This document shows, one piece after another, positions 32,541-32,969 of a DNA stretch of 46,837 nucleotides (positions within the stretch are counted from its first letter, which is position 1; every line of letters begins with the position of its first letter). Source of the stretch: a phage; the sequence record PZ502447.1. One strand, written 5' to 3'. Both the position numbers and the translations under genes were made by a program. The notes beneath the pieces were generated by a model that was given only the letters and a program-made list of their open reading frames with translations, had not been told where the DNA came from and searched no databases.

Positions 32541-32969
32541 TTAAAAAGGAATATCAGAGTCAAACTGCTGTTGACGCTGTGGCTGCTGTCGTTGCTGCTG
32601 TTGTTGCTGTTGCTGTTGCTGTTGCTGTTGCTGTTGCTGACCACTATCACCGCGCTGACTAAACTCGAGTCGAGGATTATTCATGTTAATGGTTACGTAT
32701 GTTTTACCATCTTTATCGCGAACATCTACAGCCAAAGTTTCGCAACTTACGCTAACGATTTTACCTTCCTGAAATGCCTCATCGTACCATGCAAGCATTG
32801 ATTCTTTTGCGAAGAAGACAGCTCGATAGTTACTGTAATGTACCTGACCATCCTTGTCCTTGTAGCGCTCGCTTAAATCAACTGCATACATTTTCCAGGT
32901 TCCGTTAGCATTCTGACCTTCTTTGGTGAACGGAGCGCGACGGATAACACCAGTAATTACGTGACTCAT
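32541..32969 (-). CDS. ssb: single-stranded DNA-binding protein-like with poly-Gln linker and DIPF tail
   Basis: 142 aa; C-terminal ...FDSDIPF matches the conserved acidic SSB tip; preceded by a poly-Gln tract of 17 residues inside a longer Gln-rich stretch; sits next to Erf and the exonuclease. Confidence 0.65.
   Translation of the reverse strand: MSHVITGVIRRAPFTKEGQNANGTWKMYAVDLSERYKDKDGQVHYSNYRAVFFAKESMLAWYDEAFQEGKIVSVSCETLAVDVRDKDGKTYVTINMNNPRLEFSQRGDSGQQQQQQQQQQQQQQQQRQQPQRQQQFDSDIPF
32565..32645. repeat. CAG/CAA trinucleotide-hexanucleotide tandem repeat encoding poly-Gln
   Basis: (GTTGCT)n/(CTG)n run on the plus strand, i.e. (CAGCAA)n on the coding strand, within the SSB linker. Confidence 0.9.

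Follow-up and report, generated by a model that had tools for sequence, protein, structure and literature searches.

We examined a window of 46,837 nucleotides (the whole stretch of DNA under analysis), which comes from a T1/Rtp-like coliphage (Drexlerviridae, Braunvirinae). On its minus strand, an open reading frame at 32541..32969 begins with ATG and encodes 142 amino acids plus a stop codon. A preliminary description had called this frame SSB-like, and we found that it is a real gene, which we refer to as ssb: its product matches the PHROG 44 family ('single strand DNA binding protein') over residues 1-142 with an E-value of 7e-30. The protein has three parts, all encoded on the minus strand: a predicted N-terminal OB-fold ssDNA-binding domain (residues 1-104; 32658..32969); a Gln-rich linker in which 23 of 31 residues are Gln (residues 105-135; 32565..32657), intrinsically disordered by its low pLDDT and its composition; and an acidic C-terminal tip, FDSDIPF, an SSB-Ct-like candidate partner-docking peptide (32544..32564), followed by a TAA stop codon. 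Past residue 104, the protein reads SQRGDSG, 16 Gln residues, RQQPQRQQQ and then the tip. The unbroken Gln run thus comprises 16 codons (residues 111-126; 32592..32639), not the 17 counted initially, and it contains a perfect period-6 tract of 38 nt, (CAGCAA)x6 followed by CA, which is the slippage-prone core of the repeat (32602..32639).

The genes that were proposed to adjoin ssb, encoding Erf and an exonuclease, are indeed its neighbors, and both lie on the minus strand. An Erf-family single-strand annealing protein is encoded at 33010..33702 (Pfam ERF, 9e-28; PHROG 155, 2.5e-48) and a RecE-like PD-(D/E)XK exonuclease at 33731..34702 (Pfam DUF3799, 6e-22; PHROG 412 'exonuclease VIII', 1.5e-101). 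The Erf frame as delimited mechanically begins at a GTG codon and encodes 230 amino acids, the additional part lying at 33660-33702, but its homologues are called as proteins of 216 amino acids beginning with MKTSE; thus, the true start of Erf is probably the ATG at 33660. The order of exonuclease, Erf and SSB recurs in Rtp (rtp47, exonuclease VIII; rtp48, Erf-like annealase; rtp49), in T1 (according to the Rtp annotation), in Klebsiella Webervirus, in Yersinia phage YP10S2 and in Vibrio phage K69, the SSB core of which is 29% identical to that of the window protein. Vibrio phage K137 carries its SSB gene beside another exonuclease and has no adjacent Erf gene. This conserved gene order points to a functional link of the SSB with Erf and the exonuclease.

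On the other side of ssb, an HNH endonuclease gene on the minus strand starts 4 nt past the ssb stop codon (32052..32537; Pfam HNH_3, 4.5e-8; PHROG 99, 1.9e-45). This gene is missing after ssb in Rtp, in the relatives AN_ECEAS and ES and in the related locus L016, all of which have a tail-fibre gene immediately after ssb. The HNH gene has probably been inserted as a mobile homing endonuclease and would stand outside SSB function. In AN_ECEAS, a small HNH gene sits between the exonuclease gene and erf.

Two hairpins lie in this region. One, perfect and without a T-run (32990-33003; minus-strand sequence GGGGCTTCGGCCCC, UUCG loop), is located past the erf stop codon and ahead of the ssb ribosome-binding site; it could be an element that stabilizes or processes the mRNA or that couples translation. 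A terminator-like hairpin at 32024-32043, readable on either strand and with T-runs on both sides (AAAGCCCC-GAAA-GGGGCTTT), separates the converging tail-fibre gene on the plus strand from the HNH/ssb operon on the minus strand.

We compared ssb to its relatives to place it in a family. Annotated SSBs of Rtp-like phages share 83-90% identity with the window protein, which is orthologous to Rtp49 and T1 gp27, with 87% amino acid identity to Rtp49 and the same position after an exonuclease gene (rtp47) and an Erf gene (rtp48). Like the window protein, Rtp49 has a Gln-rich tail and ends in DSDIPF. Its Gln run is 12 residues compared to the purer 16 in the window, and both the perfect (CAGCAA)6 and the downstream HNH gene are features of the window. 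By its full-length family match and its position after the exonuclease and Erf genes, the protein belongs among the PHROG 44 SSBs of the Drexlerviridae. Since rtp49 is annotated as encoding a 'putative single-stranded DNA binding protein, similar to gp27 of phage T1', ssb is, judged by sequence, the counterpart of a gene that has been annotated as a putative SSB since the Rtp genome, and it is not new. The literature that we searched contained no experimental characterization of SSBs of the Rtp49 / T1 gp27 type. A search for related loci with the N-terminal part as the query yielded 12 loci, mostly from known phages, and the loci compared here were taken from exact-protein look-ups; looking up the exact window protein found no other record.

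The nearest GenBank relatives, AN_ECEAS and ES, have about 90% nucleotide identity in the ssb region. All of the nucleotide differences in the core relative to the two closest relatives (15 of 15 and 7 of 7) are synonymous. In AN_ECEAS, the 15 differences fall in the first 312 nt, leaving a core that is 100% identical to that of the window protein. Thus, the frame is proven to be coding, and the core is under strong purifying selection. The plus-strand open reading frames that run over the repeat (poly-Leu and poly-Ala/Val) are mirror artefacts of the repeat rather than genes.

The N-terminal domain had been described as OB-like and divergent from host SSB, and both parts of that description are borne out by an OB-fold model and by about 18% core identity to E. 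coli SSB. An AF2 model built with a diverse alignment gave pLDDT values of 95-98 for residues 1-104, and the predicted fold has the layout of an SSB-type OB domain (beta1-3, a helix, beta4-5 and long hairpins). All of the top 50 Foldseek matches were SSBs or other OB-fold proteins. At the level of single sequences, the window protein had no match to Pfam PF00436 even at E <= 1, and hence is not a member of that family by sequence, while a PDB sequence search with this one protein returned nothing meaningful. Among 38 family members, 3 reached PF00436, weakly (best E 2.7e-4). A profile of these 38 diverse members matched Klebsiella SSB (1.6e-14), E. coli SSB (1.2e-10) and yeast mitochondrial Rim1 (2e-5). 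When the profile was restricted to the OB domain, the best three PDB matches were again all SSBs, at weak scores (Rim1, 1e-3; Bartonella SSB, 0.12; Klebsiella SSB, 0.8). Since the E-value for Klebsiella SSB went from 1.6e-14 to 0.8 without the tail, most of the similarity to host SSB sits in the tail.

Direct alignment by hhalign to residues 1-116 of E. coli SSB (a sequence consistent with the chain in the profile alignment) gave an E-value of 7e-5 and 18% identity. In the profile alignment, the family-invariant Y48 stands opposite E. coli W54 and F53 stands opposite F60, whereas E. coli His55 sits in an insertion relative to the phage profile. When E. coli SSB is bound to DNA, W54 and F60 stack on the single strand; that Y48 and F53 occupy the corresponding positions suggests that the window SSB would bind ssDNA. 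We conclude from model and profiles that residues 1-104 are a divergent bacterial-type SSB OB domain, and a remote homology to the PF00436-type SSBs is visible only in the profile searches. An exhaustive HMMER search with residues 1-104 against 1.84 billion representative proteins found only 59 clusters; by this measure, the SSB family of the window protein is small and phage-restricted.

We then considered the C-terminal part of the protein. Residues 105-142 are predicted to be disordered (one model gave pLDDT values below 50, a second one 54-59), and the segment has the disordered, low-complexity linker of a bacterial-type SSB. A comparison of linker lengths in related phages had been proposed, and it gave tails of 33-44 amino acids, with a median of 39 residues and a Gln content of 64.5%, in 120 close homologues that share 80-96% identity. 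Most of the other linker residues are Pro, Arg, Lys or His, each of which is one nucleotide change from a Gln codon; the minor residues Gly, Ser and Asn are at least two changes away. The run of 16 Gln in the window exceeds all others seen: the 120 database homologues have 4-11 in a row, Rtp has 12 and IME253 has 14. With its long unbroken Gln run in a disordered region, the window linker shares this feature with poly-glutamine or prion-like domains. A full-text search, with incomplete coverage, found no paper on the Gln-rich linker or the repeat polymorphism of these phage SSBs.

The tip was rightly described as canonical. IPF is present in all 120 close homologues, at the C-terminus in 118 and internally in 2, and also ends many distant ones; the clade alignment shows no variation at F136, I140, P141 and F142. 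The tip, which is of the acidic (D)-I-P-F type, lines up with the ends of E. coli and Klebsiella SSB. Among distant full-length cluster representatives, 23 of 48 end in IPF, and in many of these the ending is PPMDFDDDIPF, which host SSB also has. (N)EPPMDFDDDIPF is a frequent tail ending across the wider family, in which some tails also include GGWGQPQQP. Both are tail motifs of enterobacterial host SSB; thus, the tail of the Rtp-like clade reads as a shortened, Gln-dominated version of a host-like tail. The combination that would have spoken against an SSB, no predicted OB fold together with an unconserved DIPF, is the reverse of what we found. The predicted architecture of the window protein is that of a bacterial-type SSB: an OB core, a disordered linker and an SSB-Ct tip.

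GGWGQPQQP and (N)EPPMDFDDDIPF tails also occur on very divergent cores, as in L024:3498-3962 (Klebsiella phage KpV522), P0121, P0151, P0165 and others. The phage SSBs with such divergent cores may have kept their host-like tails from host ssb or exchanged them with it.

At the level of DNA, the linker had been said to be encoded by a (CAGCAA)n/(CAG)n repeat. The first component is present as a perfect (CAGCAA)x6 at 32604-32639, within the 38-nt period-6 tract, after which come CAA CAG CAG CAA; the second is absent, since the ssb repeat has no pure (CAG)n of at least 3 units. TRF reported two arrays here, 32576-32639 (period 6, score 86) and 32565-32639 (period 18, score 80), which are the top-scoring repeats of the entire window; all others score at most 41. 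No window ORF of at least 150 aa contains a homopolymer run longer than 5. Within the 16-codon run, 12 codons alternate strictly between CAG and CAA (permutation P = 0.0027), and thus the most plausible origin of the tract is that a 6-nt unit was duplicated, not that each codon was chosen independently. In relatives, the longest perfect tracts were at most 25 nt in the six GenBank relatives that we measured, and the tract in the related locus L018 has 5 units (about 33 nt). The linker of L007 (vB_EcoS-12210I) carries an 18-nt direct duplication (CAA CCT CAG CGG CAA CAG, twice) in place of a long Gln run, so larger units duplicate in the linker region as well.

The suggestion that linker length varies between isolates and that the variation keeps the frame was corroborated, both by pairs of alleles set apart by CAGCAA or CAA units and by varied tails on identical cores. 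Within groups of close homologues that share the same 101-residue core, the tails range from 34 to 42 residues. The tails of the closest relatives differ from that of the window by many substitutions and indels, unlike their cores with synonymous changes only; in AN_ECEAS, the linker differs by many codons and a 9-nt indel despite the identical core. The clearest units appear in near-identical genes. L018 and L019, which encode P0011 and P0015 and stem from two sequencing runs with no relation to each other, agree at 423 of 423 shared nucleotides and have a single 12-nt indel; (CAGCAA)5 in L018 compared to (CAGCAA)3 in L019 is the sole difference between the two genes. Likewise, L020 and L021 (the genes for P0033 and P0042) are one CAA codon and one synonymous base apart. 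These pairs come from short-read metagenome or SRA assemblies, with tracts of at most 33 nt that we take to be short enough for unambiguous assembly.

All of the indels seen (3, 9 and 12 nt) are multiples of three, and thus the frame and the tip are preserved. Together, these comparisons of sequences support the idea that linker length changes by replication slippage. As in contingency loci, copy number differs between otherwise identical alleles (L018/L019; L020/L021). However, a phase-variable contingency switch or frameshifting is ruled out, since the units are 3 or 6 nt and every indel is in frame; the repeat changes yield a length polymorphism, not an on/off switch. In 43 near-clonal GenBank isolates and four T145P1 records, the entire 420-nt match showed no length difference. 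Thus, the linker is not hypervariable over very short time scales, at least where perfect tracts are short or interrupted.

We compared the window protein to SSBs of known systems. E. coli and Klebsiella SSB (PF00436; PDB 1EYG, 1EQQ and 7F2N) share its plan of OB core, disordered linker and acidic DIPF tip; the core structure is of the SSB type (as predicted for the window protein), and the profile alignment extends over the full length. In contrast, the cores are only about 18% identical, and the window protein falls below the Pfam threshold; the host linker has about 55 amino acids and is rich in Gly, Gln and Pro, whereas the window linker has about 30 and is 65-75% Gln. The SSB of phage HK620 (DUF669, gp2.5-like) is likewise phage-encoded and adjoins a phage annealase, Sak4. 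Its last six residues are required for Sak4 to be loaded onto SSB-coated ssDNA (PMC5928155), and this is a functional precedent for the proposed partnership of Erf and SSB. However, we rejected the HK620 protein as a homologue, since it belongs to DUF669 and its annealase Sak4 is RecA-like; it is an analogue. The T7 gp2.5-type SSBs, including the SECphi4 SSB that triggers Retron-Eco8, resemble the window protein in having an OB core and an acidic partner-binding tail ending in Phe, but their core, at about 200 aa, is larger and belongs to another OB subtype, and they have neither a Gln linker nor an IPF tip; no gp2.5-type chain is among the fold matches listed. We also rejected membership in the Retron-Eco8 trigger class, since its triggers (T7, SECphi4) are gp2.5-type and come from phages that encode their own polymerase. 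The SSB of lactococcal phage p2 (ORF34; PDB 2WKC) is 16% identical and belongs to a different phage lineage and host.

Beyond what we observed directly (gene identity, fold, disorder and composition of the linker, conservation of the tip, gene order and unit-wise length polymorphism), we think it quite probable that the gene encodes the phage's own SSB, a modular protein of OB core, Gln tether and IPF tip that functions in a recombination operon and has a linker evolving by slippage. The ssb gene would be the last in an exonuclease-Erf-SSB operon, in which the RecE-like nuclease would resect DNA ends and the divergent OB core of the SSB would coat the exposed ssDNA. The IPF-COOH tip, a presumed copy of the host docking peptide, would then recruit Erf, host SSB-interacting proteins (replisome, repair factors) or both. 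To our knowledge, Rtp/T1-type phages have no DNA polymerase of their own, and recruitment of host replisome and repair factors would suit such a phage. The linker, about 30 residues of nearly pure Gln, would be a tether, the exact sequence of which would matter little; because it is encoded by a CAG/CAA repeat, it would evolve quickly by in-frame 3- and 6-nt slippage plus point mutations, while selection would keep it Gln-rich and roughly 33-44 residues long. The binding of ssDNA, the oligomeric state, the partners of the tip and any role of the poly-Gln beyond that of a spacer are matters that we infer.

Published work on other SSBs is consistent with this reading. RecT proteins recognize the last 7 residues of SSB (bioRxiv 10.1101/2020.04.14.041095), much as Sak4 depends on its neighboring SSB, and the E. 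coli SSB linker governs cooperativity and condensation and tolerates extensive engineering (PMC12143593; bioRxiv 10.1101/797431, 10.1101/2022.01.17.476650). In the light of the RecT and Sak4 precedents and the E. coli linker studies, we read the Gln linker as a tolerant tether of bounded length.

The same linker studies invite an adaptive reading of the repeat, which we consider unlikely, although it accounts for several observations. If poly-Gln length were tuned adaptively, slippage variants would alter SSB cooperativity or condensates, or aid escape from SSB-sensing defenses, and the repeat would be kept because it is mutable. The Gln linker might in that case be an evolvable 'rheostat', with slippage varying tether length and self-association and thereby tuning cooperativity and condensates at phage recombination and replication centers, or competition with host SSB for shared partners across hosts or conditions; this version seems to us just as doubtful. 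Perfect tract and Gln run both reach their observed maximum in the window, tails vary greatly on identical OB domains, and phage SSBs trigger Retron-Eco8, Hachiman and other systems (bioRxiv 10.1101/2022.08.27.505566). However, lengths stay in a narrow range around the median, which looks more like stabilizing selection than like switching, in many alleles the tract is interrupted and has low mutability, and the known SSB triggers are of the gp2.5 type and are sensed through the OB domain, not the tail. By analogy with E. coli SSB alone, Gln-dependent condensation of the window linker is possible.

The resemblance to host SSB could also mean that the protein is chiefly a decoy or hijacker, with a host-like IPF tip that titrates or redirects host SSB-interacting proteins (e.g., ExoI, RecQ, PriA or the chi subunit), and that ssDNA coating for Erf is secondary. 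In its tip the protein copies enterobacterial SSB, and relatives do so over entire tail motifs (GGWGQPQQP, NEPPMDFDDDIPF); the similarity to host SSB lies mostly in the tail, not the core. Nevertheless, we regard this as quite improbable as the chief function: the OB core is strongly purified by selection, with aromatic residues aligned to the DNA-stacking positions, and the conserved linkage to the exonuclease and Erf genes argues for a role on recombination intermediates. Moreover, decoy and coating roles are not mutually exclusive. We give almost no credence to the idea that the repeat or its length differences are artefacts of sequencing or assembly, or that the frame is not a real gene. 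The 38-nt period-6 tract would indeed exceed what a de Bruijn assembly with k=31 resolves unambiguously, and the polymorphic pairs stem from metagenome or SRA assemblies; but the Gln-rich tail is present in 120 of 120 close homologues and in many finished phage genomes, every indel is a multiple of three, the shorter tracts of the polymorphic pairs should assemble unambiguously, and a core that diverges at synonymous positions only is coding. We favor an SSB of the phage's own recombination operon with a Gln tether of bounded length.

On this reading, ssb would complete a compact exonuclease-Erf-SSB recombination module and would combine in one SSB a phage-specific DNA-binding core (as predicted) with a docking tip of the host type. 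This combination is of practical interest for recombineering, in which SSB tails limit the portability of annealases. Within the clade, moreover, identical cores come naturally with linkers that differ in length and in the purity of the Gln run, and these form a ready test set for effects of a disordered linker on cooperativity and condensation. Biologically, the finding is incremental, since the family is already annotated as SSB and SSB linkers are already known to be variable and of low complexity; the protein is of a known kind, with a poly-Gln linker that is extreme in composition, unusually pure and fast-evolving.

Some relatives depart from the common C-terminus. P0004, P0018 and P0124 run 15-17 residues past the IPF tip (...DIPFA[SP]xGLQY...IY[AV]L). 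In L011:1498-1959 and L026:1501-1986, the extension past IPF overlaps the start of a gene for a 142-aa endonuclease (PHROG 2340, E 1e-40); thus, insertion of the endonuclease gene seems to have replaced the ssb stop codon, burying the C-terminal Phe, which should alter partner docking in these extended SSBs. The distant members P0141, P0148 and P0163 keep the OB core and have swapped IPF for a conserved C-terminal module (...W-V-x-x-I...Y-R-A-K-I-K-S-F-L), which suggests a switch to another docking partner.
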